DNA of 32,000 nucleotides from Acaryochloris marina S15 (GTDB lineage: Bacteria > Cyanobacteriota > Cyanobacteriia > Thermosynechococcales > Thermosynechococcaceae): contig NZ_CP064927.1 in assembly GCF_018336915.1 (NCBI RefSeq), positions 120,001 through 152,000 of the forward strand, written 5' to 3'. Below the pieces are notes generated by a model, which was not told where the DNA came from, searched no databases, and saw only the letters and a program-made list of their open reading frames with translations. Position numbers and translations under genes: made by a program. Position 1 is the first letter of the stretch. The number at the start of each line of letters is the position of its first letter. Positions 1 through 15,960 of this stretch are shown piece by piece.

Positions 1-178
1 CTCTATCGTTGCTGTCACCGTGAGTACGTCATCATGAATCTCAACCGCTTGGGTATCGAACTGAGTCTCGACGTTTTCACTTCCCATTACCTGTATCCTG
101 CTGCCAGTGTAGGGTAACGCTAACACGAAGTTCCTGATTTATCGTCCGCTTGGGATAGGCCGATCTTTACACCGACTT

Positions 179-3100
179 ATGACCACTAGGGACGGGCCGA
201 TTATTACGAGTACTCCCGTCACCCAGTTTGGCCTGGCGGACGAAGTCTATCGCTATCAGCTCACGGCCAATGACCCTGAGGGGGATCCGTTGGTCTACAA
301 ACTGCTGGATGCCCCCCTCGGTGCCGTGATTGATCAGGAGACGGGAGAGCTACTTTGGTATCCCAATACCAGCGTAACGGCGGGCAGCACCACGCAATTC
401 TCCGTGCAGGTCGATGATCGGTTTGGCAATTCAGATCAGCAAACCTTTGAGGTCGATGTCGTCGGACAGCTGGGCAAGATTCAAGGGGTTGTTTTCTCTG
501 ATCTCAATAACAATGGCTATCGCGATACCAGTCTGGTACAAGGGGACTCCCCCGATGTCGTCTTTGCCATTGATGTCTCGGGGAGTACAGGTTTCCGCCT
601 CGTTGACTTAACAACGCAGGATATCAGCAGCTTGGATGAAACCACCGCGTCTATCCTCGATTTAGAACTGGCAACGACGATTGCTTTAAGTGAACAACTG
701 ATTGACCAGGGGCTGGGAGATACCGCCAAGATTGGGGTGGTGTTATGGAATACCAGCGGTCAGATTTTGGATATGGATCTGGCCCAACCCGGTATCCAGC
801 TGTATACCACTCCCCTAGCCGATACCAATAACAATGGCATCGCCGATCTGCGGGAAGCACTGGAAACAGTTAGTTCAGGTGGCTTTACGGACTTCACCCC
901 CGGACTGACCACAGCGAAAGGGGTGTTGGATAGCCTAGGTGGTGATCCAAACTTGATCTTCCTCTCTGATGGTCGAGGGGACCTGGATGAATCCATTGTC
1001 ACTGAGATTAATGAAGCAGGGATTAACCTAACCGCCTTTGGGATTGGGGCCGGGTCCAGTCTGGACCAAATCCAGAAGGTGGACCCCAATGCGATTCAAA
1101 TCTCCAATGTTGATGAGCTAGTCAATATCTTTAGTGGCTGGGATCCTCGATATTCCGTGGAACCCCTGTTAGAGAACATCACGGTCTACCTGGACCACAA
1201 CAACAATGGCGTTCTAGATCCCGATGAGCCCTACCAACTGACTCAGCCCGATAGCGGTAACTCCCGGTTAGGTGAAACTCGCTACTATTACTCCTTCGAG
1301 AATCTATTGCCTGGAACCTATACCGTCCGTCAGGTGGTACCCAATGGCTATGAAGAGACGAATCCCAGTAGTGGATCCTTTGTAGATGAAGTGACGGTCT
1401 CTGGAGGAGAAGTCTATGAGCATCTCTTTGGTCTCCATCCCATTAGTGGGCCTGCCAATTCCAATCCGGTGTTTATCACGGAGGCTCCCACTACCCCGCT
1501 CCAGGTGGGTGAGGAATTTATCTATCGAGCCCTTGCCCAAGATCCTGATGCAGATCCGATTCGCTATGACCTGCCGTTGGCCCCAGATGGGGTAACGATT
1601 GATGAGTCAGGCAATATCACCTGGATTCCCCAAGCAGATCAGGTGGGTCGCTTTGATGTGATTCTGCGGGTGCGAGATGACCAGGGGGGCACAACGCTAC
1701 AGACCTTTGCATTAGAAGTTGAGTCCAATAATCAAGCCCCCACCTTCACGTCTGGCTTGGATCATGCTCAACCCCAGGTGGGTAAAGCCTTCCAATACCA
1801 AGCCAAAGCCATAGATGCCGATGGGGATGTGCTCACCTATGAACTGGTGTCGGGTCCAAGTGGCGTCACCTTAGATAGCCAGACGGGTCTACTGAACTGG
1901 ACCCCTGTGAGTTCACAGTTAGGGAATCGCACGGTTCAACTGCGAGCGTTGGATGGCCAAGGAGGAGAGGCGATTCAGACCTTGGATCTAAGGGTGATCA
2001 ATCCCTTACCGAATCAGACTCCCACATTTACCTCAACGCCTAGAGAGCGCATCCGGTTGGGGAATACCTATTTCTATCAGGTGGATGCCACGGATGCCGA
2101 TGGTGATCCATTGACCTATAACTTATCGACCGCTCCAACGGGGATGGCGCTGCAAGATAATATCTTGGTCTGGACGCCCACGGCGGATCAGATGGGTGAG
2201 CATCAGGTAGTTCTCTCTGTCGATGATGGCCAGGGAGGGGTAGCGGCACAGACCTATACCCTGATGGTGGGCAATCAGCTGAGTAATGCCGCCCCTGAGA
2301 TTACCTCCACGCCGAATTTAGTCACGAATATAGAGCGAGAGTATCAGTACAACCTGACGGGGTCTGACCCAGATGGAGATTTGGTGCAGTGGCGCTTGGT
2401 CAATGGTCCTGAGGGTGTGGTGGTTGACCCGACTTCTGGCAGCTTGCGCTGGCAGCCGACGGTGGATCAGTTGGGGGCTCATACCTTAATCGTGGAGTTG
2501 AGTGATGCCTATGGTCTCTCGACTCAGCAGACCTTTGAAGTGCAGGTGAATGGGGCCAATACTCCCCCTGCCTTCTTGTCTACACCTTCCACCCGAGCCG
2601 CTCAAGACCAAGCCTATTCCTATCAGGTGATCGCTAAAGATCCAGAGCAGGATGAACTGACCTATAGCCTGGGGATTAACCCAGTGGGGATGACGATTGA
2701 TGCCCAGTCGGGTCTAATTCAATGGACCCCCGAGGCTAGCCAGTTGGGTGTCCATGATGTGGAAGTCCAGGTGCGGGATAGCCAAGGGGCTGTCAGTACC
2801 CAGACTTATCGATTAGAGGTGGGTGAAGCCCCGATTAATCAGGCTCCAACGATTACCTCCCGTCCGCTGTTCCAGGCTGATCTGCAGCAGCCCTATTCCT
2901 ATCAAATTGAAGCAACGGATCCAGAGGGTGGGGCGCTGTCCTACCAGTTACTGGAAGGTCCAGCGGGGATTACGGTGGATGCCCAAACAGGGGTATTGAC
3001 CTGGGATGCTCCTGTGGTGGGTGACCATCGCATTGTCGTCGCAGCCTATGATGTCGAGGGATTAGGGGCCGCTCAAGGCTATACCCTCAGGGCCTTAGCT

Positions 3101-6100
3101 AATGAGCTGCCCGTGATTCGGTCAACGCCAGAGACAACGGCTTTTGTCGGGGGTGAATATCGCTATGATGTTCAGGCTCAAGATCCAGAGGGTGGGGCAC
3201 TGACCTATGAGCTGGATGCTAATGCTCAAGCTTTAGGGGTCACCATTGATGACTATGGCCGCATTTTCTGGACGCCGACGACTGACCAGGTCGGTGTCTA
3301 TCCGATTACCTTGACGGTGACGGATGCTGCGGGAGCTAGCGTTGAACAACAGTTTGATTTGACGGTGCAGACGGATGATGTCGCTCCCGAGGTGCGGTTG
3401 GTGCCGAGTGTGGAACCCGCTGCCTTGGGTGAGTCCGTGTCTCTGTTTGCTTCTGCCACGGATAACGTTGGGGTGGATCTACTGAGCTTGACGGTGAATG
3501 GCCAAGCGGTGGCGCTGGATGCCAATGGCATTTATACCTTTACCCCAGATGCAGTGGGTGACGTGACGGCGATCGCGACAGCGAGGGATGCGGCTGGGAA
3601 TACCACCCAGACGGAGGCCACCTTCTCTGTACTAGATTTGACGGATGTGGATGCTCCTGAGATTAGCCTCCCGGATTTGAGCGGTCAGGTGTTTACGGCT
3701 CCCACGGAGATTGTGGGGACGGTGAATGATGACAATCTGGTCTACTACAGTTTGTCTGTCGCCAAGGTGGGGTCTGATGACTTCCGGGAAATCTTCCGAG
3801 GATCTGATCCGGTGGTGGATGGAGTGTTGGGAACTTTTGACCCCTCACTGTTAGAGAATGATGCCTACACCTTACGGTTGAATGCTGTGGATGCTGGCGG
3901 CAATGTCGTCACCCAGGATGAAGTGGTGACGGTAGCGGGTGAGCTGAAGTTAGGGAACTTCCAGCTATCGTTTACAGATTTGACGATTCCAGTAACGGGG
4001 ATTCCCATCTCGGTGACCCGGACCTACGATACTTTGACCAGCAATACCACCGATGACTTTGGCTATGGCTGGCGTTTGGAGTTCCGGGATACGGATCTAA
4101 GGACGAGTTTGCCTAAGGATGAGACCTTTGAGCAGTTGGGGGTCCGCACAGTTGGGTTTGAAACGGATACGCGGGTGTATATCACTCTGCCTGGGGGACA
4201 GCGACAAGGGTTTACCTTTAGACCTAGAGAGGATAACCGTTTTAATCTGATTGCTGGACCTACCTCTGCTAGACTTTTCCACCCTGAGTTTGTCGCTGAT
4301 GATGGAGTCACCAGTACTCTAACGGTGGAGGATGCCACTCTAGTCCGAGGGGCTGGCACAGATGAATTCTTTGGCGTTAATGGGGAAGCCTATAACCCGG
4401 CTGATGGTGGTTTTGGTGGGGTCTATACCCTGACGACGAAGGAAGAAATTGTCTACAAGATTGATGGGCAGTCAGGAGATCTGCTGTCGGTCACAGATAC
4501 GAATGGCAATACCTTGACCTATACCGATGGCGGCATCTTTAGTGATGCGGGCCCATCTGTCCTCTTTGAGCGGAATGCTCAGGGCCAGATCACTCGGGTC
4601 ACGGATCCATCTGGCCAACACATCACTTATGAATACGATGATCTCGGTGATTTAGTGGCCGTGACGGATCGGGAGGGGAATACCACTCGGTTTGGCTATG
4701 ACGATAATCGTGCTCACTATCTTGATGAAATTATTGACCCCTTGGGCCGCTCTGGCACCCGGTCTGAATACAACGATGACGGTCGTCTATCGAAACTGAT
4801 TGATGTCAATGGGGAAGCCCTTGAATTCATCTATGACCCGAATAACTCCTTGCAAGAAGTCAAGGATGTCTATGGGGTCTCCACTTTCTATGAATATGAC
4901 CAGCGGGGCAATGTGGTCTCCACTGTGGATGCTTACGGTACCCGCGTCAACCGAGACTATGACGAAGACAATAACCTCATCCGCGAAACGATTATTTCAG
5001 AGGAGACGGGACCAGAGGGCTATACCACCGAAATTGTCTACACCGATGAAGGTCAGGTGCTCTCGGGAACGAATGTCCTCAATCAGGAGTTTCGCAATAC
5101 CTACGATAGTGATGGCAATCTGCTTACTACGACCAATGCATTAGGACAGACGGTCACCTATACCTATGACCGCTATGGTAATCCCACCTCGGTGACAGAT
5201 GCTGCCCAACGACGGAGTGAATATGAGGTGGATGCGCGGGGCAATATTGTCTCTATCCTCAATGTGGAACAGAATCGCAGCCACTTTGAGTACGATGTCA
5301 ATGGCAATCTCACCCGGTCCGTGGATGTTCTAGGTAATGAAACCCTGTTCACCTATGACCAAAATGGCAATCGCACCAGCCGTACCCAGACCGTCACCAA
5401 GGCCGATGGCTCCACGGAAGAAATTACCACCACCTGGACCTATAACAGCAATAACCAGCTCCTAAGCCTGACCAATGCGGAAGGAGCCATCTTTAGCTAT
5501 GAATACAACGGGAGTGGCTATCTGGCAGCCTTTGTTGATGCCTTGGGCAACCGCACTGAATATCTCTACGACGATAAGGATCAGCTAGTCGAAACGATTT
5601 ACGCAGATGATACTCCAGATGACAACAGCGATAACTTGCGCTCTATCACCCTGTATGACCGGGGAGGGAGAACCCGTGCCGCTATCGATCCTGCAGGTCG
5701 GGTCACTCACTTTGTCTATGACTTACTTGGACGCCCCACAGAGGTGATTTATCCCCAAGGGTCTGAGACTTTAGAGCAGTTACTCGGTGCCATCGCGCCC
5801 GGACAGACCTTAGAAAGCGTGGATTGGGCTGATATCCTCTATCCCGATGACCCTCCCGCCTACTTATCAGATAACCCTCGCCGCCAGTGGGAATATTTCC
5901 CCGATGGCAAGGTTAAGGCTGAGATCGATGAACGAGGTCATCGGGTTGAATATCGTTATGACGAACTGGGACGGCTAATCGAGACTATCTTGCCGGATGA
6001 GACTCCTGACACTCTTGCCGATAACCCTCGCCTGTCGGCTGAATATGATGCCATCGGTCAATTGAGCCAGACCACGGATCCCCTCGGCCAGACGACTCGC

Positions 6101-9061
6101 TATGTCTATGATGATGCCGGGCAGGTGACACAAACACAATTTGCAGATGGGACGAGTGTGTCGGCGACCTATAACTTGCTGGGTCTGCAAACCTCCATTA
6201 CTGACCAAGAGAGCAATACCACCCTCTATCGGTACGACGGTTTAGGTCGCCTCTTAGAAATTGAAGATGCTCTGGCCTCGATTACCCGCTATGACTATGA
6301 CGATGTGGGTCGGCGAACTTCAACGACCAATGCTTTAGACCAAGTCACCCGCTATGACTATGACAAGGTGGGACGCCGCACCAGCATTGAGTTACCCGAA
6401 GGGCAAGAAGCCAGTTATGCCTATAACGCTAACGGCAATTTAGAAACTTATACGGACTTTGCAGGGAAGACTCAAGAATATGACTACGATGCCCTGAATC
6501 AGCTGATCTCCATTGCCTTTGCCAACGACCCCACCCAAGAGTTTACCTACACGGCGACGGGTCTAATCGAGACGATTACGGATGGTCGGGGCGTAACCCA
6601 GTTTGCCTATGATGAGCGGGACCGCCTGATTGCTCGCACGGATCCCAATGGACCCTACATCAGTCCAGGGGGACCGACCATTCAATATACCTATGACGAT
6701 GCCAGTAATCGCACCTCAGTCCAAACCCCCAATGGCACCACCACCTATGGCTTTGATGCTCAAAACCGCTTAAATAGCGTGATTGACCGAGATGGGTTCG
6801 AAACGACTTATCGCTATGACCTGGCTAGTCGGTTGGTGGAGACGGTCCTGCCCAATCAGGTAATTGAGCGTCGCGATTATGACGACTTGAATCGGTTGAC
6901 TCACCTATCCACGGTCAGACGAGATGAGGTGACGGGAGAAGAAACCCTAATCACCAGCTTTGAATACAGCCTCAATAAGATTGGGCACCGTCTGCAAGTA
7001 ACGGAATCGACGGGTCGAGTGGTCAGCTATGAATATGACCAGCTCTATCGTCTGACCAAGGAAACGATCTCTGACCCCAATGATCCCACGAATGATGGGC
7101 GAGTCACAGAGTATGAGTTAGATGCTTTAGGCAATCGACTACGCCGCATTGACTCCCTAGAGGGAGAAACCACCTATACCTATAACCAGAACAATCAGCT
7201 GCTAAGGGAGATAAGACGTCAAGGCGATGTAATTGAACAGGAAACTGTCTATGCCTATGACAACAATGGCAATTTACTGAGCAAGACGGTTAATGATTCA
7301 GAAGTAACCACCTATCGCTGGAATGATGAGAATCGACTGGTTGAGGTGGAACTGCCCAATGGCGACAGTATCAGCTTTGTCTATGACACCGCAGGTATCC
7401 AGGTCTCCCGGACACTGAATGGGGAAACAACGACGTTCATCATCGATAGCAATCGCCCCTATGCCCAGGTGATTGAGTCTTTAGATGATCAGACCCTGCT
7501 GGAATTTAAGACTTTTGGCATTGATCTAATTTCTCAATCGGATGAGAATGGAACGATTTATTTCCATACGGATGGATTAGGCAGTACACGGGCGATTACG
7601 GATGCCAATGGTGAGGTCCAGGACCGATTCAATTACAACGCCTTTGGAGAACTGTTAACGACAGAGAATAACAGTGATGTCGATAACCTATTCGCGGGTG
7701 AGCAGTACGATGCTGAGTTAGGTCTGCAATATCTACGGCAGCGTTTTTACGACCCCAGTACGGGTCGGTTTATCAGCCAGGATGCGTTTGAAGGGTTCTT
7801 GGATGACCCGATTACCCAGAATCGCTTTTTGTATGCCAATGCGAATCCAGTTACCTATACCGACCCTAGTGGATATTTCTCGATCTCGGAGCTAAATGCC
7901 GGAAAGATAATCAGCAATATCCTATCAAAAGGCTCAGCTGCCCTCAGTGCAACCGCTTCCACAGCAGTGAGTCGAACAATTGCGGGCGCTGCAACTGGCA
8001 TCTTTGGTACGGCGCTGGACAAGATTGCTAAAGGCGAAGATATCACCATTCCTGATTTATTATTAGGGGCTGGAGCTGGAGCTAGTTTTGGCTATTTAGC
8101 TCCAGCTATTGCTGCGACCGCTCCAGGTTATGCAATCGCAGGCTTGAGTCTCAACAATGCTAGAGAATCACTGGTAACGCTACATGAAGCTTTGAATGAC
8201 CCCAATGCTTCTGCAATACGAAAAACGGCGGCGTTTGTCCAAGCCTTGGAAAGTTTGTTTGATCTCAAACAAATTGTTACGAGTGGAATCCTATTTGGCC
8301 CCCAGTGTTTTGTTGCTGGAACTCCCATTCTCACACCCACTGGTAAGAAAGCCATTGATGAGCTAGAGCCTGGTGATTGGGTGCTCTCTTGGGATGATGA
8401 AACAGATGAGGTTACTGAGCGACAGGTGACGGAATGGTATCGCCGAGAAGCACCAGCTATTATTGACATCTTTATTGGTACAGAGAAAATCTCATGTACG
8501 CCAGAACATCCCTTCTGGGTTCCGGGCAAAGAATGGGTGTTGGCATCTCAAATTAAGAGGGGGACAGTTTTACAAAATCGTGCTGGAGAGGCAGTAGTAG
8601 TTGATGCTGTTCGTCGTCGCCATGAAATTACTCAAGTTTTCAATGTTGAGATTGATGGGCTGCACACTTATTTTGTTTCTAATCTCGAAATACTGTCGCA
8701 CAATATGTGCCAGAATAGACAACCTTCTCCTGCTGTCCCATATGATGATTATAGTCCTGAAGCAGTAAGTTCAAGGCAAAAACAAGCTCGTGAATACTAT
8801 GGTCAACTAGAAGAAGCTAATAATTCTCCTGCTGGACCTTCTGGGAGGAAAAAGCCAATACCAAAAATTTCAGGTAAAGAAGGATCTAAAGATATACCGT
8901 CATGGTTGAAACAAACAGGAGAGATACCATTTGTTGGTGAATCTGGAAAAGAATTTGCTAAGCGTGTGTTTGAAACTTATCGCCCAGGAGTGGAATACAA
9001 AAATGTGCCTAATTCGGAATTCAATAGAATAAAAAAATGGGCGGATCGAAACTTTAAATAA
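179..9061 (+). CDS. Giant RHS/YD-repeat polymorphic-toxin-type protein, 2960 aa (vWA + SdrD-B-like + cadherin-like repeats + Ig-like pair + RHS shell + Hint + small C-terminal domain)
   Basis: Single uninterrupted 8.9-kb ORF. Motifs read from the translation: MIDAS-like DVSGS...FTDFT...FLSDG (vWA); NNNGVLDPDE...TYTVRQVVPNGY (SdrD-B/Cna-B-like); ~92-aa repeats with YxYQxxAxDPDGDxLTY; dozens of YD repeats (xYxYDxxGN); core end RQRFYDPSTGRFISQDAF...NPVTYTDPSGY; Hint block CFVAGTPILT...HTYFV...LSHN. No Sec signal, PAAR or LXG-type N terminus noticed. The ORF opens directly inside a cadherin-like repeat, so the start and N-terminal completeness are uncertain. Confidence 0.9.
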   Translation: MTTRDGPIITSTPVTQFGLADEVYRYQLTANDPEGDPLVYKLLDAPLGAVIDQETGELLWYPNTSVTAGSTTQFSVQVDDRFGNSDQQTFEVDVVGQLGKIQGVVFSDLNNNGYRDTSLVQGDSPDVVFAIDVSGSTGFRLVDLTTQDISSLDETTASILDLELATTIALSEQLIDQGLGDTAKIGVVLWNTSGQILDMDLAQPGIQLYTTPLADTNNNGIADLREALETVSSGGFTDFTPGLTTAKGVLDSLGGDPNLIFLSDGRGDLDESIVTEINEAGINLTAFGIGAGSSLDQIQKVDPNAIQISNVDELVNIFSGWDPRYSVEPLLENITVYLDHNNNGVLDPDEPYQLTQPDSGNSRLGETRYYYSFENLLPGTYTVRQVVPNGYEETNPSSGSFVDEVTVSGGEVYEHLFGLHPISGPANSNPVFITEAPTTPLQVGEEFIYRALAQDPDADPIRYDLPLAPDGVTIDESGNITWIPQADQVGRFDVILRVRDDQGGTTLQTFALEVESNNQAPTFTSGLDHAQPQVGKAFQYQAKAIDADGDVLTYELVSGPSGVTLDSQTGLLNWTPVSSQLGNRTVQLRALDGQGGEAIQTLDLRVINPLPNQTPTFTSTPRERIRLGNTYFYQVDATDADGDPLTYNLSTAPTGMALQDNILVWTPTADQMGEHQVVLSVDDGQGGVAAQTYTLMVGNQLSNAAPEITSTPNLVTNIEREYQYNLTGSDPDGDLVQWRLVNGPEGVVVDPTSGSLRWQPTVDQLGAHTLIVELSDAYGLSTQQTFEVQVNGANTPPAFLSTPSTRAAQDQAYSYQVIAKDPEQDELTYSLGINPVGMTIDAQSGLIQWTPEASQLGVHDVEVQVRDSQGAVSTQTYRLEVGEAPINQAPTITSRPLFQADLQQPYSYQIEATDPEGGALSYQLLEGPAGITVDAQTGVLTWDAPVVGDHRIVVAAYDVEGLGAAQGYTLRALANELPVIRSTPETTAFVGGEYRYDVQAQDPEGGALTYELDANAQALGVTIDDYGRIFWTPTTDQVGVYPITLTVTDAAGASVEQQFDLTVQTDDVAPEVRLVPSVEPAALGESVSLFASATDNVGVDLLSLTVNGQAVALDANGIYTFTPDAVGDVTAIATARDAAGNTTQTEATFSVLDLTDVDAPEISLPDLSGQVFTAPTEIVGTVNDDNLVYYSLSVAKVGSDDFREIFRGSDPVVDGVLGTFDPSLLENDAYTLRLNAVDAGGNVVTQDEVVTVAGELKLGNFQLSFTDLTIPVTGIPISVTRTYDTLTSNTTDDFGYGWRLEFRDTDLRTSLPKDETFEQLGVRTVGFETDTRVYITLPGGQRQGFTFRPREDNRFNLIAGPTSARLFHPEFVADDGVTSTLTVEDATLVRGAGTDEFFGVNGEAYNPADGGFGGVYTLTTKEEIVYKIDGQSGDLLSVTDTNGNTLTYTDGGIFSDAGPSVLFERNAQGQITRVTDPSGQHITYEYDDLGDLVAVTDREGNTTRFGYDDNRAHYLDEIIDPLGRSGTRSEYNDDGRLSKLIDVNGEALEFIYDPNNSLQEVKDVYGVSTFYEYDQRGNVVSTVDAYGTRVNRDYDEDNNLIRETIISEETGPEGYTTEIVYTDEGQVLSGTNVLNQEFRNTYDSDGNLLTTTNALGQTVTYTYDRYGNPTSVTDAAQRRSEYEVDARGNIVSILNVEQNRSHFEYDVNGNLTRSVDVLGNETLFTYDQNGNRTSRTQTVTKADGSTEEITTTWTYNSNNQLLSLTNAEGAIFSYEYNGSGYLAAFVDALGNRTEYLYDDKDQLVETIYADDTPDDNSDNLRSITLYDRGGRTRAAIDPAGRVTHFVYDLLGRPTEVIYPQGSETLEQLLGAIAPGQTLESVDWADILYPDDPPAYLSDNPRRQWEYFPDGKVKAEIDERGHRVEYRYDELGRLIETILPDETPDTLADNPRLSAEYDAIGQLSQTTDPLGQTTRYVYDDAGQVTQTQFADGTSVSATYNLLGLQTSITDQESNTTLYRYDGLGRLLEIEDALASITRYDYDDVGRRTSTTNALDQVTRYDYDKVGRRTSIELPEGQEASYAYNANGNLETYTDFAGKTQEYDYDALNQLISIAFANDPTQEFTYTATGLIETITDGRGVTQFAYDERDRLIARTDPNGPYISPGGPTIQYTYDDASNRTSVQTPNGTTTYGFDAQNRLNSVIDRDGFETTYRYDLASRLVETVLPNQVIERRDYDDLNRLTHLSTVRRDEVTGEETLITSFEYSLNKIGHRLQVTESTGRVVSYEYDQLYRLTKETISDPNDPTNDGRVTEYELDALGNRLRRIDSLEGETTYTYNQNNQLLREIRRQGDVIEQETVYAYDNNGNLLSKTVNDSEVTTYRWNDENRLVEVELPNGDSISFVYDTAGIQVSRTLNGETTTFIIDSNRPYAQVIESLDDQTLLEFKTFGIDLISQSDENGTIYFHTDGLGSTRAITDANGEVQDRFNYNAFGELLTTENNSDVDNLFAGEQYDAELGLQYLRQRFYDPSTGRFISQDAFEGFLDDPITQNRFLYANANPVTYTDPSGYFSISELNAGKIISNILSKGSAALSATASTAVSRTIAGAATGIFGTALDKIAKGEDITIPDLLLGAGAGASFGYLAPAIAATAPGYAIAGLSLNNARESLVTLHEALNDPNASAIRKTAAFVQALESLFDLKQIVTSGILFGPQCFVAGTPILTPTGKKAIDELEPGDWVLSWDDETDEVTERQVTEWYRREAPAIIDIFIGTEKISCTPEHPFWVPGKEWVLASQIKRGTVLQNRAGEAVVVDAVRRRHEITQVFNVEIDGLHTYFVSNLEILSHNMCQNRQPSPAVPYDDYSPEAVSSRQKQAREYYGQLEEANNSPAGPSGRKKPIPKISGKEGSKDIPSWLKQTGEIPFVGESGKEFAKRVFETYRPGVEYKNVPNSEFNRIKKWADRNFK
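554..1132 (+). other. von Willebrand factor A-like domain within the giant ORF (aa ~126-318)
   Basis: VVFAIDVSGSTG (DxSxS MIDAS motif at nt 572-586), later GGFTDFTPGL (Thr) and LIFLSDGRGD (Asp), in the usual vWA order and spacing. Confidence 0.7.
1460..3370 (+). repeat. Tandem array of 7 cadherin-like/putative-Ig (He_PIG-type) coding repeats, period ~92 aa (~276 nt); an 8th copy is at nt 179-463
   Basis: Repeat starts read from the protein: NSNPVFITEAP, NQAPTFTSGL, NQTPTFTSTP, NAAPEITSTP, NTPPAFLSTP, NQAPTITSRP, NELPVIRSTP. Each is followed by xYxYQxxAxDPDGDxLTYxL ... GxxxWTPxxxQxGxxxV ... D.QGG...Q.F.L.V. Confidence 0.8.
3962..7876 (+). other. RHS/YD-repeat shell and RHS-associated core (aa ~1262-2566)
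   Basis: Starts with LSFTDLTIPVTGIPISVTRTYDT...FGYGWRLEF. Continuous YD repeats follow (e.g. ITYEYDDLGDLVAVTDREGNTTRFGYDD). Ends with LRQRFYDPSTGRFISQDAF...NRFLYANANPVTYTDPSGY (DPxG-type tip boundary at nt 7862-7876). Confidence 0.85.
7877..8305 (+). other. Gly/Ala/Ser-rich hydrophobic segment with glycine-zipper-like strings between RHS core end and Hint domain
   Basis: AGAATGIFGTAL and LLLGAGAGASFGYLAPAIAATAPGYAIAGL read from the translation. No family assignment possible by eye. Confidence 0.45.
8306..8704 (+). other. Hint (Hedgehog/intein-like) domain, pre-toxin HINT / bacterial intein-like type (aa 2710-2842)
   Basis: Begins CFVAGTPILTP (block A Cys), contains TPEHPFWV (block B-like) and HTYFV, ends LEILSHN. 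The residue after HN is Met, not Cys/Ser/Thr, so it is not a splicing intein. Confidence 0.85.
8705..9058 (+). other. C-terminal variable domain (candidate toxin), 117 aa: P/S/K-rich linker + ~65-aa basic block, family unassigned
   Basis: Position is distal to the RHS core and Hint domain. Sequence GKEGSKDIPSWLKQTGEIPFVGESGKEFAKRVFETYRPGVEYKNVPNSEFNRIKKWADRNFK. Noticeably more AT-rich than the RHS body. Confidence 0.5.
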
Positions 9062-9178
9062 GTATATTTTTGGTAATGAATGACACAGGCAGAACATGAA
9101 GAATTATTAGCTGAATAATTATTTAGATAAAAAACTTTATGCAAGCCGAAGCATTTCCCGATGAATATATAAAGTATA

Positions 9179-9291
9179 AAATTATAGCGGTTCCCGAATG
9201 AATGAAATACAATAAAGAGCCCTAGCCCCCTTGTAATATTTCATTGCAGTTACATCGCTATACCTCCCTTGAGAAAGAACCGCTATAATTT
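9179..9291. repeat. Palindromic element in the toxin/immunity gap: 15-bp perfect inverted repeat enclosing a second nested inverted repeat
   Basis: AAATTATAGCGGTTC (9179-9193) is the exact reverse complement of GAACCGCTATAATTT (9277-9291). Inner pair AATGAAATA (9201-9209) / TATTTCATT (9237-9245). Confidence 0.7.
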
Positions 9292-9348
9292 CAGAAAAAA
9301 ATGATTTATCTCTTTAATAAAATTTATAATTAGCTTTTAGCATTGATT

Positions 9349-9927
9349 ATGAAAAATTCAAAAAGTATTATTTTACCTAGGAATTGTGAATCCATTTGGT
9401 TAATTGGATTTCGATTTGACCCAGATATTGCAAAGCCAGACTTTTTAACTCTTATTTTTTCTGGAGATGAAGACTTACCCTTAACACTTAATAATTATAT
9501 TTTGTTTTTTAGAGATATTAAATTAATAGAAATTGAAGCCGATCCTTCAAGTGAAATACAAAACCTTCAACTACCACAAGAAATTAATTTAGTTGTTGAT
9601 ATCGCAGAGATATCATATATACTTTTCAATGAAGATATAGATGAATCAATAGCAATTCTAGATTCATTAAACATAATATTTGATTTGGTTAAAGCTACAG
9701 GAATATCATTCAAGCCTATAGATAAAAAAAATTTGTATGCATTGGCCGATCACCTTACATTCAGCAAAGATTTATCTAGTTTCTTTTGTAATATCGATAT
9801 AACGCGAGAAAATATTCATGATGCTATTCTCTGGTGCATTGGAGCAATTTGCTCTAAGTCCAAACTATTAGAAAATAAAATTATCTTGAATACAATAGGA
9901 AGCGTAACAAACCTACCTGCTAGCTAA
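9349..9927 (+). CDS. Hypothetical acidic cytoplasmic protein, candidate cognate immunity protein of the RHS C-terminal domain
   Basis: First ORF downstream of the toxin gene on the same strand. Extremely AT-rich (about 25% G+C in a hand-counted 60-nt sample). No signal peptide or TM segment. ATG at 9349 preferred over the TTG at 9343 used by the ORF track. No recognisable motif. Confidence 0.55.
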   Translation: MKNSKSIILPRNCESIWLIGFRFDPDIAKPDFLTLIFSGDEDLPLTLNNYILFFRDIKLIEIEADPSSEIQNLQLPQEINLVVDIAEISYILFNEDIDESIAILDSLNIIFDLVKATGISFKPIDKKNLYALADHLTFSKDLSSFFCNIDITRENIHDAILWCIGAICSKSKLLENKIILNTIGSVTNLPAS

Positions 9928-9938
9928 GTATTTATGAT

Positions 9939-10172
9939 ATGCTCCAAGCATCCGTTCGGTCAGGGAGCATCGTCTTGGAGTACGAGTTACGCATTGTTGT
10001 TGAGAAGGTTGCCATCAGTACTCAAGAAGTGGTTAAGCGCAACACGATTAAAGTCTACGATATTAAAGCACCTGAATCGAAATTGTCAGGGCTGATTGTC
10101 CAGAATTGAGAAATCGACACCGTCCTGATAGGCTGAGCCTTGTCCCTGAGCCATACTCTGTCTGTATTTAAT
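9939..10172 (+). CDS. Unlisted 77-codon ORF (MLQASVRSGSIVLEYELRIVVEKVAISTQEVVKRNTIKVYDIKAPESKIVRADCPEL...), hypothetical
   Basis: Hand translation from the ATG at 9939 runs without a stop to the TAA at 10170-10172, which overlaps the IS6 transposase ATG. It is absent from the supplied ORF track. No motif recognised. Confidence 0.25.
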
Positions 10173-10527
10173 GGATTGTCCTCATTGCAACTCAACCCGA
10201 GTCTCATTTCTTTAGAGTAAGACTGACCTTGGCTATGCTCGGTTTCGATGCAAAGTGTGTCGGCGGAGTTACAATGAGCGAACTGGTACTCCCTTCAACT
10301 TTATTGAAGTTCCGACAGACATAGTATTCCAGGTGCTTCTACTTCGAGTACGCTACAAACTCAGCTATCGAGATGTGGCCGAGTACTTCTTGAGCCGGGG
10401 CTTAGTTTTCACTCATGAAACCGTGCGAGATTGGGAGGAAAGATTTCTGCCTCACTTTACGGAACAGATTCGGACTAAACGGAAGGGAAAAGTAGGCAAG
10501 GTATGGCTTGTGGACGAAACTTATGTC
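10172..10527 (+). pseudogene. IS6-family transposase, N-terminal fragment with an in-frame TAG and 3' truncation
   Basis: MDCPHCNSTRVSFL*SKTDLGYARFRCKVCRRSYNERTGTPFNFIEVPTDIVFQVLLLRVRYKLSYRDVAEYFLSRGLVFTHETVRDWEERF...VWLVDETYV. Zn-finger + HTH + the first catalytic Asp motif DETYV are typical of IS6/IS26-like enzymes. Similarity stops right after DETYV. Confidence 0.75.
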
Positions 10528-12281
10528 GGCCTTCCAATAGTAACGGTTCCTGTTGGCGAATGTATTTGTGAGCATTAATACTTAGCGATCTGTCCAAATA
10601 CCCCCTTGGAAAATGAGGAATTGCAAAGGCCCATTTTTCTGTTACTTCATCGACCTAGCATGAACTCAACGCTGTTCATAGAGCAAGGAGCACCCTGCTA
10701 TGTCTATGCACCCTCACCCCATTCAGCCAGTTCCCGAAAACACAGCCACAGTCGCTCATCTAGCATTTCCTAAAGGCAATCGATACATCACGCTACGCGA
10801 TGAAATTGGCACCTTCTTTACTGATGAAGACTTCAGGGACTTGTTTTCAGTTTATGGTCAATCTGCGATCAGTCCCTGGCAACTTGCCCTCATCTGTATC
10901 CTGCAATTTCTAGAAGATCTGACAGATCGACAAGCAGCAGATGCCGTTCGTAGCCGCATTGATTGGAAATACTTACTAGGACTGGAGTTGACCGACCCAG
11001 GATTTGACTATTCCGTATTATCTGAATTTCGAGCACGGTTGATTGAAGGGCAAGCAGAACAACGCTTGTTGGATTTACTCCTATCAGAATGCAAAACCCG
11101 AGGCTGGCTGAAGCAACGAGGTAAACAACGAACTGATTCAACGCATGTATTAGCTGCCACACGCACCCTCAACCGTTTAGAGTGTGTGGGTGAAACCCTA
11201 AGAGCAGCACTGAATAGTATTGCTACGGTTGCGCCAGATTGGCTACAAGCGTGGGTTCCCCTTGAATGGTTTGACCGTTATCGTCGTTCAATTGAGGAAT
11301 ATCGCTTGCCGAAGGGAATTACTCCTCGTCAAGAATATGCGGCAGTCATTGGTGCAGATGGGATGCATCTACTAGAGAGAGTTTGGGACGATTCAGCCCC
11401 TTCAAAGTTGAGAGAAATACCGACTGTTGAGGTCCTGCGCCGTACTTGGGTCAACCAATACCAGATTGTTGAAGGACAAGTCCAGTTGAGAGCAGCCAAG
11501 AATATTCCGCCTGCAGGAGAGCGAATTGATTCTCCCTATGATCCAGATGCCCGGTTTGGGAATAAACGTTCTACGACCTGGACAGGCTATAAAGTTCATT
11601 GGACTGAAACTTGTGATGATGAGCAGGTGCATTTGATTACTCATGTCATGACAACCCATGGCCATCAAACCGATCTTGGACAGACCCCACAAGTGCATAT
11701 GGCTCTTAAGGCAAAAGGTTTGCTACCGGCTGAGCATATGGTTGATACAGCTTATGTCGATTCTCCTTTGATGCTGAATAGTCCAAGAGATTATGGAATT
11801 GAACTGGTCGGCCCTATGCGTCCAGTTGCCAATTGGCAATCTCATGATCCTGAGGCCTATGACTTGAAGCGTTTTCAGATCAACTGGGAAACTCAAACCG
11901 TAACATGTCCACAAGGGAAAACGAGTAAGAGTTGGGGACCGGGAAAAGACACAGCAGGACGCCCAATATTTCATGTCAAGTTCTCATCAAAAGACTGTAG
12001 TCCTTGTGCTCAAAGATCTCTGTGCACTCGATGTAAGCGTTCACCTCGTCATTTAATGGTGCGTCCCAAGGAGGAACATGAGGCGATAGAAGCTATTCGT
12101 CAGGAGCAGAAGACTCCAGAATGGCAAGAACGCTATGACAGACGTGCAGGCATAGAAGGGACTCTGGCAACAGGTATCCAAGTTTTTGGGTTGAGACAAA
12201 CTCGATATATTGGCCTTGCCAAAACTCATTTGCAGCATGTTTTCTCGACCGTAGCCATGAATATACGTCGTCTCGTTTCAT
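10528..12281 (+). mobile_element. IS1182-family-like insertion sequence, inserted into the IS6 transposase gene and itself truncated at its right end by the Tn3-family IR (left boundary approximate)
   Basis: The IS6 reading frame loses similarity at ~10528. The transposase ORF starts at 10700 after an AAGGAG site. The right end is replaced at 12282 by GGGGTATGAC... Confidence 0.65.
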
Positions 12282-12337
12282 GGGGTATGACAACGATTCC
12301 TAGGTTAGAGGGCCATAAGGCTGAAATCTATATCTGA
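10700..12337 (+). CDS. IS1182-family (IS5-like, InsH-N/DUF772 + DDE) transposase; last ~18 codons are read-through into the Tn3-family IR
   Basis: SPWQLALICILQFLEDLTDRQAADAVRSRIDWKYLLGLELTDPGFDYSVLSEFRARL (InsH-N-type), Cys-rich TCPQGK...CSPCAQRSLCTRC, C-terminal RYDRRAGIEGTLATGIQVFGLRQTRYIGLAKTHLQHVFSTVAMNIRRL. The sequence ...LVSW|GMTTIPRLEGHKAEIYI* is encoded by the transposon IR from nt 12282. Confidence 0.8.
   Translation: MSMHPHPIQPVPENTATVAHLAFPKGNRYITLRDEIGTFFTDEDFRDLFSVYGQSAISPWQLALICILQFLEDLTDRQAADAVRSRIDWKYLLGLELTDPGFDYSVLSEFRARLIEGQAEQRLLDLLLSECKTRGWLKQRGKQRTDSTHVLAATRTLNRLECVGETLRAALNSIATVAPDWLQAWVPLEWFDRYRRSIEEYRLPKGITPRQEYAAVIGADGMHLLERVWDDSAPSKLREIPTVEVLRRTWVNQYQIVEGQVQLRAAKNIPPAGERIDSPYDPDARFGNKRSTTWTGYKVHWTETCDDEQVHLITHVMTTHGHQTDLGQTPQVHMALKAKGLLPAEHMVDTAYVDSPLMLNSPRDYGIELVGPMRPVANWQSHDPEAYDLKRFQINWETQTVTCPQGKTSKSWGPGKDTAGRPIFHVKFSSKDCSPCAQRSLCTRCKRSPRHLMVRPKEEHEAIEAIRQEQKTPEWQERYDRRAGIEGTLATGIQVFGLRQTRYIGLAKTHLQHVFSTVAMNIRRLVSWGMTTIPRLEGHKAEIYI
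12282..12319 (+). repeat. Tn3-family terminal inverted repeat (tnpA-proximal end)
   Basis: GGGGTATGACAACGATTCCTAGGTTAGAGGGCCATAAG. Same GGGG...TAAG, 38-bp format as classical Tn3 ends. Confidence 0.85.
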
Positions 12338-12451: not shown

Positions 12452-15400
12452 CTACACCAATATGGGTTCAGCCTCTTGTTCCTTTAGAGCAATCGGAATA
12501 TCAAAATTGATGGGTGGCGGATTACGCTGTTGATCTAAGAAGAATAGTCCGAACCGATTGAGATGGTCCATCCAATAAGGGCTCAGTAACGCCAATACCT
12601 CTGCATCAAACATGCGGCCATTTTGGGCTTCCTCATTGAGAATGCGACTCATCTCTGAAACGTTGTAGAAAATGAGACAGTTGGCCACCAGGTGATTGTA
12701 TTTGATGCGCTTTCGGAGTTCAGCTCGGTTATTGCTAGAGAGGACTTGGTTTTCACCGCCAAAGGCGAGCCACTTAATAAAGCGATTGAATGACTCACAC
12801 TTGTTGGTTTCAGCATGGATCGTTTCCTGCATTTGAGGGTCGTTGATGTACTGCAGTAAGAAAATGGTTCTCAAGACACCTCCAAGCTCATGAAATGCTT
12901 GAAATAGCTTATTCTTGCGGCTATTGGTTCCCAACTTTCTCAACAGGGTAGAGGCTTGAACTTTCCCTTCTTTGATGGACAACGCTACCCGTAACATATC
13001 CGGTAAGTGGGTTTCAATTAGATCCCAGTCCGTCACCTCGGTGAACAAGCTGTCCAAATGCTTGTAGCGGGTCCCCCGAGATGGCCGATAAAACGCTAAG
13101 CTCTGCCAACCTCGAATGCGAGGCATCAGGGTAATGCCCAATAGAAACGCCAAGGCAAACACCGTACAGCTTTGGGATTGAGTATCGCCATGAATCGTGT
13201 CCGGTTGAATTTCAGACGTATTTTTGAGCAACCCATCAAGGATGTAAATGGCTTCCCACACCCCGCAAGGAATAAAGTGACTGAACAGGGCAATGTAGGT
13301 GTCGCTGATGTGGTAGTAGCCAATGCCGCCATAGCCACCATAGCGGATGTGATATTCCGCCAATAGATTCTGCTCATACATATCCCACTTGGTTCCATCC
13401 ACTGAAGCCTGTTTGCCGGACCCCCAAACCTTGGGAAGCGAAAAGCGGTTATAGGAATCGATGATCTCAGTAATGGCCTGCTGGATGTTCTCTTCACTTA
13501 TGTGGCGATGGTGAATCCAGGAGATTTGACGACGGTTAGTTCCGGGTAACGACCGTTCCAATTGGCTGGTGCCAATGTTACAGCCGAAACAGAATGTGGT
13601 GGCGATATATCGTTCAACTGGATCTGTGATCTTGGCGTCAAAGCCAGATAGGGGACCGAAGCATTGGGTCCAGTTGAGCCATTTCTCGGTGTCACACAGC
13701 ACATCCAGAATAGAGACGGGTTTGATCTTCCGTTCAATGAGTGCCTTCACTTCCGCCAATCCTTCGGGTAATTGACGTTGGCGTTTATGGATTACCAGAC
13801 GGTCTTTTTTAAAGCTCAAGTGAGCATTGGTGGGGAAGGCCTGATCTGCCGTCTTGGCCGCTTCTCGTAACCGGTGCTTCATCTCTTGAACAAAGGCCTT
13901 ACCCTCCGTTGGCAGATTGATCATCTTGCCATACTCTTCAGCTGAGTCCTGGTATTCTTCCCAAGAAATCAACTGGCTGTAATAGTCCCCAAATTCGTTA
14001 CTGCCCGGAATATACAAATCCCCCGACTGCAATTCCAGACTGATATGGGAGAACACACACAACTCAAAGTAAAGGCGATGAACTTTGGTGGGTGGAGTCT
14101 GTTGTGAATCCATGATCAACGACCGCCACTTGTTAGGCACCCAACTGAGATCCAGCATCGGGACAACCGCTTCATCAGGGCTGCCCTGATTCACGATCTG
14201 GGTCATCGGCACCCATTTACTGCGTTTGGACCGATGGGCTTTGATAAATTCAACCGCGTTGATTAAAGACTGGTCCTGGGTGCTGGAGCACAAGGGGAGT
14301 TGCTCTAGGAGTCGGAAGAATACGGCTCGATGAGCACGATAGAAACGGGTCAAAAAAGAGAAGTAGTTGTTGCCCACATAGGCTAAATGCTCTTGGCAAT
14401 CGTCAATGAGCTGTTGTGGATCATTCCCAATCACAATTTTCATCGACTTGAAGCGTGTGGTGATCCGGCCTTCAGAGTCATAGGCCAACAGAACATGCAA
14501 GAAGATGTCGATGAGTTCATCCGTGCGAGCTTGCGTCCTGCGACGATAGTCACTCAGGGCTTCTGCTCCCTTGTGATGGAGCTGGCGGACCCGTTTGATA
14601 AACATCTCCGCTAAATCATCCAGTGTGTTGGCATATTGAGACGATAGCAAGGCCAGGGCTAAGGTATAGCGTTTGGCGTCGCTCATTTCTTTCATGCGAG
14701 CAGCATCTAAAGACTGGGCCTCTGCGGCGAGGGCCTTGATCTTGACGGCGGGAATATCCTGCAAACCGGAATTTGGGATCTGCAGATCAGCCAACCATTC
14801 CAACCGTTCAATCCACTCTTGCAGCCGCGAGAGCAAGGGTTTGCCGGGGTCTTCCTTCAAGCGGTTCCATAACGATTTCTCTACTAGCGAAGCCGACACA
14901 AATAACCGATTCAGCTTCACCCGCTCCGTCCGCTTTAAGGTCTGACTGACTTGTTCATACTGCTTTGTAGCCACCGCTTTTCGGACCTCTCGTGCAGCTT
15001 GGTCTAGGGTATAAAAAGCTGGGAGCTCAAATCGATGGCGGACCAATTCTTCAATGGCCACATTGATCAAGTCTGGGAGTTCATGTTTGGTCAATGCCGC
15101 CTTTTCCATCGATTCATGGACAACGGCACTGGCTTGGGGGCCATACTTGGTAATTTGTAAATAGCTGCGAATCACCCGCAAATGTCGTTGATGGGCTTTA
15201 GAACGATCATAAGTTGCCAGATCGGGTTGGAAACCGCGTAGGCCAGCTAAGGTGGCGATGTGACGTACCGCAGTAGTTGGTGCATCACTGGTCTTGATGG
15301 CATAGCCTAAGCGTTGGTAAGTTTTCAGGGACACCAAAAACCCCAATTGAGTTTGAGCACTTCGGGTGAGGTGCTTTGCTAGGGCTAATTCCTCTTGGGT

Positions 15401-15481
15401 TGGGGTGTAGATGGCTGAGAGATCTTCATTGGAGGGGTTCCGCTTTAAGCGTGGATAAGCAGTCTCATGTACACTGGCCAC
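12452..15481 (-). CDS. tnpA: Tn3-family transposase TnpA (~1009 aa)
   Basis: Length and N terminus MASVHETAYPRLK... (DUF4158-type) plus a large C-terminal DDE region. Start assigned to the GTG at 15481 (codon 44 of the 1052-aa track ORF), preceded by AAGGAGA 9 nt upstream. The longer ORF would overlap the upstream gene out of frame. Confidence 0.9.
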   Translation of the reverse strand: MASVHETAYPRLKRNPSNEDLSAIYTPTQEELALAKHLTRSAQTQLGFLVSLKTYQRLGYAIKTSDAPTTAVRHIATLAGLRGFQPDLATYDRSKAHQRHLRVIRSYLQITKYGPQASAVVHESMEKAALTKHELPDLINVAIEELVRHRFELPAFYTLDQAAREVRKAVATKQYEQVSQTLKRTERVKLNRLFVSASLVEKSLWNRLKEDPGKPLLSRLQEWIERLEWLADLQIPNSGLQDIPAVKIKALAAEAQSLDAARMKEMSDAKRYTLALALLSSQYANTLDDLAEMFIKRVRQLHHKGAEALSDYRRRTQARTDELIDIFLHVLLAYDSEGRITTRFKSMKIVIGNDPQQLIDDCQEHLAYVGNNYFSFLTRFYRAHRAVFFRLLEQLPLCSSTQDQSLINAVEFIKAHRSKRSKWVPMTQIVNQGSPDEAVVPMLDLSWVPNKWRSLIMDSQQTPPTKVHRLYFELCVFSHISLELQSGDLYIPGSNEFGDYYSQLISWEEYQDSAEEYGKMINLPTEGKAFVQEMKHRLREAAKTADQAFPTNAHLSFKKDRLVIHKRQRQLPEGLAEVKALIERKIKPVSILDVLCDTEKWLNWTQCFGPLSGFDAKITDPVERYIATTFCFGCNIGTSQLERSLPGTNRRQISWIHHRHISEENIQQAITEIIDSYNRFSLPKVWGSGKQASVDGTKWDMYEQNLLAEYHIRYGGYGGIGYYHISDTYIALFSHFIPCGVWEAIYILDGLLKNTSEIQPDTIHGDTQSQSCTVFALAFLLGITLMPRIRGWQSLAFYRPSRGTRYKHLDSLFTEVTDWDLIETHLPDMLRVALSIKEGKVQASTLLRKLGTNSRKNKLFQAFHELGGVLRTIFLLQYINDPQMQETIHAETNKCESFNRFIKWLAFGGENQVLSSNNRAELRKRIKYNHLVANCLIFYNVSEMSRILNEEAQNGRMFDAEVLALLSPYWMDHLNRFGLFFLDQQRNPPPINFDIPIALKEQEAEPILV

Positions 15482-15486
15482 TGCCT

Positions 15487-15960
15487 CTACTCTCCTTTCG
15501 TCTGTAGCTGGGTTTGATAAGGGGTTCCGCAATAGGGGCAAAAACGATGCTTGAGAGAGGTGATGGGTTCTTGGCAGCTGATACAGCGATCTTGTAGCCG
15601 AGTACCACAAGCAAAACAGTGTTTAGATCTGATATCCATCCACAGGGGTTCAGGCGCACTGCCGGCGCGCCAACACTGGGGGCAAAACTTCAAAGTTTGC
15701 GTGGCTTGGATGGCTCGGCCTCTGCTAATGGAATCCAAGTAATCTGGAGGGATTTGTAGGGCACATGCTAAACCCTGACGTGTTTTGTGATTGAGGGAGT
15801 GGGTTTTACCGCGCTCCAGCTTACCCAAACTTTGGGCGTGGATATTGGCCTTAAGGGCGACTTCCTTCTGGGTGAGACCGAGTCTGACTCGCAGGCGGCG
15901 AAGATACTCAGCCAAGGATTCATCAGGATGGGGGAGGGCATCAGATTCTAAAGGTTGCAT
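15487..15960 (-). CDS. XRE-type helix-turn-helix protein with two C-terminal zinc ribbons (157 aa), transposon-encoded, translationally coupled to tnpA
   Basis: LAEYLRRLRVRLGLTQKEVALKANIHAQSLGKLERGKTHS (HTH_XRE), then CPQC-x17-CFAC and CISC-x11-CPYC. Its stop TAG (15487-15489) lies 5 nt from the tnpA GTG, and the tnpA RBS is inside its last codons. Start set at MQPLE (15960) because the longer track ORF overlaps the divergent recombinase gene. Confidence 0.75.
   Translation of the reverse strand: MQPLESDALPHPDESLAEYLRRLRVRLGLTQKEVALKANIHAQSLGKLERGKTHSLNHKTRQGLACALQIPPDYLDSISRGRAIQATQTLKFCPQCWRAGSAPEPLWMDIRSKHCFACGTRLQDRCISCQEPITSLKHRFCPYCGTPYQTQLQTKGE

Follow-up and report, generated by a model that had tools for sequence, protein, structure and literature searches.

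An unnamed C-terminal domain of an Acaryochloris marina RHS protein as the predicted payload of a polymorphic toxin, with a candidate immunity gene

RHS/YD-shell polymorphic toxins include TcB-TcC of the Tc toxins, the Rhs effectors of type VI secretion systems (T6SS), and WapA of Bacillus. Shells of the RHS/TcC type encapsulate their C-terminal tip and release it by aspartyl autoproteolysis. The pretoxin HINT domain (PT-HINT) is said to have been proposed by Zhang et al. in 2012 as a release module of polymorphic toxins. Here we describe a locus of this kind in a stretch of 32,000 nucleotides (nt) from Acaryochloris marina S15 (NZ_CP064927.1, positions 120,001 to 152,000 of the forward strand), which we call the window. 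An intact open reading frame (ORF) of its plus strand, 179..9061, encodes an RHS protein of 2960 amino acids (aa), and is followed by the ORF 9349-9927, here called ORF192, whose family is labeled o192. Judging from sequence comparison, the tip of this protein is very probably the C-terminal payload of a polymorphic RHS/YD-shell toxin, and ORF192 its immunity gene. The architecture is canonical, an ordinary toxin/immunity cassette in layout whose contents are uncharacterised, and the interest of the locus lies in these contents rather than in the architecture: the o192 partner family is unnamed, like the toxin-type domain itself.

A relevant precedent is the set of domains PT1-PT9 (Nachmias et al., bioRxiv 10.1101/2021.10.19.465003), which are unannotated, have <150 aa, and form the C-terminal ends of RHS, PAAR, DUF4150, and filamentous-haemagglutinin carriers. 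They are also met as short stand-alone genes next to an immunity gene, and the structures of PT1 and PT7 have been solved (bioRxiv 10.1101/2021.10.19.465003). Among the corresponding PIMs, PIM9 is a DUF4279 protein of 147 aa and the others have 116-157 aa (bioRxiv 10.1101/2021.10.19.465003).

A preliminary description of this DNA, made from the letters alone, had placed the basic block of ~65 aa at the C-terminus outside the named toxin families, and no Pfam, NCBIfam, PHROGs, or PDB match was found for it. The last 65 aa (aa 2896-2960) have an isoelectric point (pI) of 9.7, and for the last 118 aa (aa 2843-2960) searches of Pfam, NCBIfam, and PDB sequences found no match with thresholds as permissive as E ≤ 1-10. 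A word-indexed search returned nine relatives with a motif of ~65 aa in common, and the profile built from these nine, searched against 1.84 billion cluster representatives, matched 1,096 clusters (50% identity) at E ≤ 1e-3, 642 of them also at E ≤ 1e-10. For the 150 best matches listed of the 1,096, the position is at the C-terminus or close to it, in proteins of 62 to 2135 aa. The recognisable carriers contain RHS repeats, DUF637 (the pre-toxin region of CdiA-type proteins), or Tox-PAAR-like/DUF4150 domains, and one of them, from Minicystis, bears the annotation of a DUF4150 protein. Pfam models matched none of the 67 family members searched, and a profile search of PDB sequences gave noise only.

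The matches in genomes were to Gilliamella, a Bryobacteraceae metagenome-assembled genome, and Candidatus (Ca.) Sulfotelmatobacter. In Gilliamella the domain stands at the end of a 1392-aa Rhs protein and is found once more 1.8 kb downstream, there as an "orphan" gene of 65 aa on its own, which by its gene arrangement appears as the classic layout of a displaced toxin cassette. Such free-standing cassettes have 62-80 aa and lack a hydrophobic part; NCBI labels one free-standing copy 'hypothetical protein'. The domain is spread over Cyanobacteria, Acidobacteria, Gammaproteobacteria, and many metagenomes, still without a family name or a solved relative. As judged by these comparisons, the C-terminal block is a large, modular, unnamed family with the features typical of a polymorphic-toxin payload. 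The earlier suggestion that the effector may be novel holds only insofar as the domain is unnamed, but the domain is no orphan, its family being as large as the 1,096 clusters indicate.

The family consensus is xPKxGxSGKEGAKDxPSWAKGxRPxVGESGKxFAKRLxDxKYGxGNYxxGPxSEFNKIKKW[GA]DRxF. An AlphaFold2 model built on an alignment of 67 sequences, with a predicted local distance difference test score (pLDDT) of 89 and a predicted template modelling score (pTM) of 0.77, consists of two short and two longer helices. A Foldseek search of PDB and BFVD with this model found no fold neighbour (best E=3.4).

The gene following the toxin domain was the second line of evidence. In the three genome loci and in one JGI contig it encodes a protein of ~70 aa that matches DUF7336 (PF24024). 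A census of partners was made on 80 metagenome loci retrieved by the toxin profile, whose six-frame segments were scored by hidden Markov models (HMMs) of the toxin, DUF7336, o192, and fam3, a third family found among the leftovers; a partner was counted if it lay ≤400 nt past the toxin domain on the same strand. Of 86 strong occurrences of the toxin domain, 84 had such a partner, namely DUF7336 in 64, fam3 in 13, and o192 in 7 (the window included), and 2 had none; with identical copies removed, the counts were 54, 9, 6, and 2. These counts speak for a toxin/immunity pair. The family of ORF192 is therefore the rarest of three alternative partner families. A full-text literature search found no occurrence of the domain motifs or of the name DUF7336.

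Seven further contigs, of which six are distinct (loci L005, L027=L030, L048, L059, L084, and L088), have a relative of ORF192 directly behind the toxin domain, so that the evidence of partnership is a gene order seen repeatedly. In L005, an additional pair, the toxin-domain ORF (340-636) is not annotated as a gene and directly precedes the o192 protein P0014. The idea that ORF192 is unlinked to the toxin, suggested by the different ends of the annotated genes upstream of P0011 and P0014, was rejected because of this L005 ORF and the recurrent pairing in metagenomes. The o192 proteins have the blocks LIGFRxDPD, CLNxxFDL, LADHLTF, and LWCxGxI in common. ORF192 itself, of 192 aa, has a 100% identical NCBI entry, 'hypothetical protein [Acaryochloris marina]', and 4 homologues; its pI is 4.5 and it has no N-terminal signal-like hydrophobic stretch. 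Neither ORF192 nor the o192 family has a Pfam (E ≤ 1), NCBIfam, or PDB match, and a fold search of PDB with the ORF192 model gave no usable match, the model being poor (pLDDT 55.8 from a 5-sequence alignment).

The toxin domains linked to o192 also differ in sequence from the others. Alanine precedes the terminal Asp-Arg in 6/6 non-redundant o192-linked toxin domains vs 12/65 others (Fisher p=1.3e-4, ignoring shared ancestry). All three partner families are small and acidic, and none has a conserved transmembrane segment. The fam3 proteins have 160-185 aa (~170), share two conserved blocks (W..DG and FWN..D), are not matched by Pfam, and were seen directly after the toxin domain in L033, L035/L036, L040, L043, L050-L053, L060/L061, L064, and L086. 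They may be distant relatives of o192, which the fam3 HMM matches at E ~1e-3; hhalign of the two families gave E=1.4e-3 at a probability of only 17.6%. Because of the recurrent pairing, the alanine residue, the acidic pI of ORF192 against the pI of 9.7 of the toxin domain, and the lack of a hydrophobic N-terminus, ORF192 is likely to be the cognate immunity protein of the toxin domain, and the toxin would then act in the cytoplasm.

It might be argued instead that ORF192 is not an immunity protein, the cognate DUF7336 gene having been lost and the AT-rich ORF being an unrelated foreign arrival. DUF7336, the partner in 64 of the 86 occurrences, is indeed absent from the window, since its family HMM, run on all 32 kb translated in six frames, found nothing better than E=1.7, and the gap before ORF192 holds an inverted-repeat element that could have been inserted. 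In addition, P0011, a close o192 homologue (56% identical to ORF192), has no toxin domain upstream. We nevertheless consider this explanation quite improbable, as o192 members follow the same toxin domain directly in the seven contigs mentioned above, the six other o192 loci of the census have no DUF7336 gene ≤400 nt away, the o192-linked toxin domains have a distinguishing residue in common, and the toxin domain, gap, and ORF192 are alike in their low G+C content at third codon positions (GC3). P0011 may represent an orphan member of a cluster of immunity genes. It comes from marine metagenomes (L001 321-1735, also L002-L004), where two small unannotated ORFs follow it. A degraded DUF7336 gene in the gap (e.g., 'EAFPDEYIKYKII') was considered as well and rejected, the best HMM match (E 1.7) lying elsewhere in the window.

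The RHS stop and the ORF192 start are 287 nt apart, which is long for such a pair. An element of 113 nt in this gap (9179-9291) is bounded by a perfect 15-bp inverted repeat (AAATTATAGCGGTTC; 9179-9193 and 9277-9291), and its predicted fold has -28.3 kcal/mol (z=-5.28 vs shuffled sequence). It has no Rfam match and no second copy in the window, and may be a small insertion or a structured RNA. Rfam matched nothing in the window, and promoter and terminator scans of nt 8900-10300 stayed at background level.

At four independent loci (L006, L007, L046/L049, and L052), DUF7336 proteins carry a C-terminal copy of the toxin domain of their own; these fusions lie at 3061-3537 in L006, 3229-3651 in L007, 4219-4704 in L046 and L049, and 5639-6103 in L052. 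The GK motif is replaced in the fused copies, with GESGK changed to EESNN, GENSI, GETSE, or EETKK, and the terminal [GA]DR is changed to RNR, KEL, KEM, or GEL. From their sequences they look like inactivated "toxoid" copies of the toxin domain, and the loss of these motifs fits the GK, GESGK, and DR residues being needed for toxicity. Because the conserved motifs are replaced there, Glu2921, Lys2924, Asp2956, and Arg2957 of the window protein are candidate functional-site residues. Our best guess, which is a tentative one, is that the toxin might bind or cleave a phosphate-bearing substrate, nucleic acid or nucleotide, because the domain is basic, has a Gly-rich GESGK turn that opens a helix, and has conserved Glu, Lys, Asp, and Arg residues. 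It is a rather speculative thought, to which we give limited credence, that the domain has a toxin fold of a new kind and a new activity or target, that three immunity families without structural kinship counter it, and that in some lineages DUF7336 "toxoid" decoys, which compete for the target or pair with the toxin, do so as well.

Upstream of the toxin domain the carrier is an RHS protein. RHS_repeat (PF05593) was matched in 12 stretches at E=3.8e-113, TIGR01643 was matched as well, and Pfam also recognised He_PIG, Big_9, and Cadherin-like Ig repeats. Rhs_assc_core (TIGR03696) covers aa 2486-2565 (E=8.7e-19, 67.8 bits vs a cutoff of 32.5, model positions 1-75 of 76). The end of the RHS core had been placed at DPSGY, nt 7862-7876, and these coordinates are right: DPSGY corresponds to aa 2562-2566, and Tyr2566 stands directly past the TIGR03696 match, which ends at aa 2565.

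The core is followed by the spacer, aa 2567-2709, which had been described as a G/A/S/T-rich hydrophobic stretch of ~143 aa. It is present as described (143 aa, 46% G/A/S/T), with a hydropathy that is only moderate and no clear transmembrane helix; the Kyte-Doolittle maximum over 19 residues is 1.47, below the usual transmembrane threshold. One perfect GxxxGxxxG is found in it (GAGAGASFG, aa 2630-2638), and neither homologues in a protein search nor a Pfam or PHROG match were found. In 45 of 80 carriers the 200 aa upstream of the toxin domain contain a hydrophobic stretch (hydropathy ≥1.4 over 19 residues), and 23 of the 80 have a GxxxGxxxG. The T6SS DNase effector Tde1 needs a glycine zipper for translocation (PMC10240207). 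By analogy with Tde1, whose translocation requires the zipper, a role of the window spacer in translocation or membrane insertion is plausible.

Next comes a HINT domain, which had been reported as a complete Hint fold running from Cys2710 to SHN2842, with Met as the next residue. Every catalytic block was found, i.e., the N-terminal Cys2710, TxxH (TPEH) at 2774, and Ser-His-Asn at 2840-2842 before Met2843, and PT-HINT (PF07591) scored above its cutoff (E=1.1e-18, 68.2 bits vs 27.7). Hint_2 and the intein N-terminal models were matched too, and intein_Cterm (TIGR01443) reached 16.4 bits vs a cutoff of 15.6. Because its +1 residue is Met, not Cys, Ser, or Thr, the window HINT is expected to cleave and not to splice. 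A HINT domain directly before the same toxin domain recurs in L041 (an RHS protein), L060/L061, P0155, P0038, and P0151, where His-Asn is followed by C, G, R, T, or K; this varying +1 residue fits a cleaving rather than a splicing HINT.

The spacer invites another explanation, in which the glycine-zipper segment is the toxic element, depolarising or pore-forming, and the basic C-terminal domain an accessory binding or targeting module. Membrane-depolarising glycine-zipper toxins are known, e.g., EsxX and the ionophoric CdiA-CTs, and both the GxxxGxxxG in the segment and the hydrophobic stretches upstream of the toxin domain in 45 of the 80 carriers would suit such a role. However, the segment has no homologues and its hydropathy peaks at only 1.47, it is the 65-aa domain that is conserved and modular and accompanies the partner genes, this domain being also free-standing (62-80 aa) without a hydrophobic part, the partner proteins are soluble and acidic and not membrane proteins, and HINT sits between the spacer and the domain, where the domain would be released. 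We therefore regard this explanation as very improbable, and take the C-terminal domain as the predicted toxin.

The composition of the DNA changes along the tip. Total G+C declines from 0.50-0.54 (RHS part) to 0.48 (spacer), 0.45 (HINT), 0.42 (linker), 0.35 (toxin domain), 0.30 (gap), and 0.29 (ORF192), and is back at 0.45 from nt 9928 onward. The corresponding GC3 values are 0.53-0.57 for the RHS part, 0.385 for the spacer, 0.338 for HINT, 0.17 for the linker, 0.23 for the toxin domain, and 0.20 for ORF192. A first step lies at the core boundary and a larger one near nt 8622, where a maximum-likelihood search for a single change point placed it, near the 3' end of HINT; the recovery right past the ORF192 stop is sharp. 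The stepwise drop in base composition announced in the preliminary description is therefore real and graded, but its sharpest step is at the HINT/linker junction (nt ~8620-8700) and not at DPSGY. By its composition, the cassette from the linker to the ORF192 stop (nt ~8620-9927) is foreign, and it probably arrived by horizontal transfer.

A plasmid protein search with the C-terminal part of the shell as query found a syntenic locus on pMB01 of Acaryochloris sp. 'Moss Beach' (L093; NZ_CP071718.1 204386-213444). The RHS protein of pMB01 has 6276 aa with Ig repeats and ends in a NucA/NucB DNase (PF14040, E=3.9e-9) with no HINT, and the next gene encodes an SMI1/KNR4 protein (PF09346; the two proteins are WP_235111743.1 and WP_235111343.1). 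Nucleotide identity to the window is 90% in the 5' Ig-repeat region (window 3000-4218) and 86% in the 3' flank (window 10078-10254, just past the SMI1 gene), while the YD shell has only 47% aa identity. Between the kept flanks, the shell, tip, and immunity gene all differ, and the exchanged unit in this comparison includes the shell. ORF192 was considered as a SUKH/SMI1_KNR4 protein and this was rejected, with no Pfam match and an hhalign probability of 0.2% against the SMI1 protein of pMB01. In other cyanobacterial homologues the annotated tip is of the colicin E3 type or contains a HINT, and two A. marina strains carry the same tip and ORF192.

The proposal of a swapped effector/immunity cassette gains support from the modular domain, the recurrent o192 pairing, the composition break, and the different tip of pMB01. 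Homologous RHS genes do not always carry the same tip, NucA/NucB and SMI1/KNR4 standing in its place in pMB01. RHS alleles with identical cores and different tips, which the preliminary description had proposed to look for, were not seen, the shell being diverged (47% aa identity) in the sole syntenic comparison. In L006, a large coiled-coil-rich non-RHS protein (35-3046) has a different tip and is followed by a 99-aa gene and then by the orphan cassette P0007. The N-terminus of P0007 repeats the junction sequence of the L006 carrier (FMPFAKIFKFLKGNAAKLGIKK vs MPFGKLFKLLKGASVKLGIKE), and because of this repeat the L006 arrangement suggests a tip replacement by recombination at the carrier junction.

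The region of the window is present in three public assemblies of Acaryochloris sequencing runs. L011 and L012 are 100% identical to the window region. A further A. marina assembly, L010, shares 98.85% identity with nt 191-10170 of the window; the two differ at 115 nucleotides, every one of them within the Ig-repeat part (nt 191 to ~3600), and they agree completely over the YD shell, tip, ORF192, and flank (~nt 3600 to 10170). The RHS gene in L010 runs on upstream and is called at 6920 aa. Before nt 191 the two diverge completely, with in-frame stop codons on the window side, and the window ORF starts at an internal Met (MTTRDGPIIT vs ...NDGPIIT in L010). The stretch compared with window 1-191 was L010 1-843, to which the window sequence there is unrelated. 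Neither protein search returned the window's own RHS protein, though ORF192 is on record.

Judging from this comparison, the window RHS copy may be a 5'-truncated remnant, perhaps not deployed. In the stronger form of this idea, the window copy is a decaying remnant whose 5' part (~3,960 codons, including any export signal) was lost by rearrangement, and the tip and ORF192 are undeployed relics. The longer L010 gene and the in-frame stops speak for it, the absence of the window RHS protein from the protein searches fits annotation as a pseudogene, and the locus is surrounded by mobile genes, namely an IS6-family fragment (10255-10578) and an IS1182 transposase (10700-12337) after the cassette, and further on a Tn3 transposase (12452-15610, minus strand) and a tyrosine integrase (16041-16934). 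On the other hand, the remaining 2960-codon frame is intact and its identity to L010 from ~nt 3600 to 10170 leaves no decay in the tip or ORF192. We take this possibility seriously without favouring it, and it concerns deployment in one strain, the nature of the cassette being unchanged by it. The 3' flank of the cassette is 98% identical to A. marina plasmids, from MBIC11017 and MBIC10699, and in the plasmid DNA search Acaryochloris plasmids were matched only by the final 125 nt of the query.

The features of the locus are collected in Table 1.

Table 1. Features of the RHS locus and their positions in the window.
Feature	Position (nt)	Strand	Basis
Carrier: Ig-like repeats (He_PIG, Big_9, Cadherin_5), RHS/YD shell, Rhs_assc_core, end NPVTYTDPSGY	179..7876	+	Pfam, TIGR03696
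G/A/S/T-rich spacer, 143 aa, moderately hydrophobic	7877..8305	+	composition, motif, hydropathy
Pretoxin HINT, Cys2710 to Asn2842	8306..8704	+	PF07591, Hint_2, intein N-/C-terminal models, motif positions
P/S/K-rich linker, aa 2843-2895	8705..8863	+	translation; no family match
Unnamed basic all-alpha toxin-type domain, aa 2896-2960, and stop codon	8864..9061	+	profile search, AlphaFold2
AT-rich gap, 287 nt, with 113-nt inverted-repeat element	9062..9348	.	inverted-repeat and RNA-fold analysis
ORF192, predicted cognate immunity protein, 192 aa	9349..9927	+	family members directly after the toxin domain elsewhere
3' flank common to Acaryochloris plasmids; 3' limit of the variable region	10078..10254	+	nucleotide identity

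Taken as a polymorphic toxin, the protein would work as follows. The YD shell would enclose the tip, and the Rhs-associated core would cut after DPSGY (aa 2566), freeing a tip of 394 aa made up of the glycine-zipper-like spacer, pretoxin HINT, a flexible linker, and the 65-aa basic all-helical toxin domain. Cleavage by HINT would then detach the linker and toxin (aa 2843-2960) from the spacer, which may help the toxin across the membrane of the target cell. The toxin would probably act in the cytoplasm, because the partner proteins are small and acidic, have no conserved transmembrane segment, and, in the case of ORF192, no hydrophobic N-terminus. ORF192 would bind and neutralise it.

A number of observations weigh against reading the locus as a toxin and its immunity gene. 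A domain of 65 residues is small for an enzyme, its fold has no neighbour from which to deduce an activity, and no measurement of toxicity, neutralisation, or cleavage was found in the literature for the members of its family. The 394 aa past DPSGY are a large tip for encapsulation, and the spacer within it has no homologues and a hydropathy peak under the typical transmembrane threshold. The window RHS ORF has no obvious export signal and diverges from the 6920-aa version before nt 191. On the side of the immunity gene, the gap of 287 nt compares with o192-family matches that start 25-77 nt past the toxin stop elsewhere, the usual partner DUF7336 was not found in the whole window by the six-frame HMM search, and P0011 is without an upstream toxin domain. 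If the domain is toxic, it would be a compact new antibacterial effector whose natural inactive variants mark active-site candidates, and its partner genes would be a ready set of immunity proteins for studies of specificity. In any case, the exchange of polymorphic toxins is documented at a defined locus in Acaryochloris, a group little studied for such systems.

Compared with described RHS/YD-shell toxins, the locus has the YD shell, a core ending in DPxG[L/Y], a variable tip, and a downstream predicted immunity gene that differs between relatives. It is unlike them in its giant Ig-repeat carrier, which reaches 6920 aa in L010 and lacks a PAAR or VgrG link, in the absence of secretion genes from the window, and in the length of the 394-aa tip with its additional HINT and hydrophobic spacer. 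The HINT domain resembles the PF07591 release modules in its score above threshold, its N-terminal Cys, TxxH, and His-Asn, its place directly upstream of the toxin part, and the same HINT-toxin junction in at least five other proteins; unlike in the usual context, it lies inside an RHS tip, so that two predicted cleavage devices would stand in series. The allele of pMB01 occupies the same locus with a giant Ig-repeat RHS protein and then a 192-aa immunity gene, whereas its tip is NucA/NucB without HINT, its immunity protein is SMI1/KNR4, and its YD shell shares 47% aa identity with that of the window.

As for Tde1 (PMC10240207), the likeness is a glycine zipper N-terminal to a toxin domain that acts in the cytoplasm, as predicted for the window, whereas the window has one perfect GxxxGxxxG only and HINT separates the segment from the toxin. 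Two other reports (PMC13392607, and PMC12744356 on EsxX) describe several immunity proteins that act on one toxin. The present domain is similar to those toxins in that one toxin family is met by more than one immunity-type family (DUF7336, fam3, and o192), and different in that the partner families are alternatives at different loci and their immunity function is predicted. PT1-PT9 are the closest published analogue in kind, since they are also short unannotated C-terminal domains with the same kinds of carriers and with free-standing copies. Nothing found points to the window domain being one of PT1-PT9, although it might coincide with PT2, PT4, PT5, or PT6. It differs from PT1 and PT7 in having no PDB sequence or fold match, and its main partner DUF7336, with ~70 aa, is unlike the PIMs.

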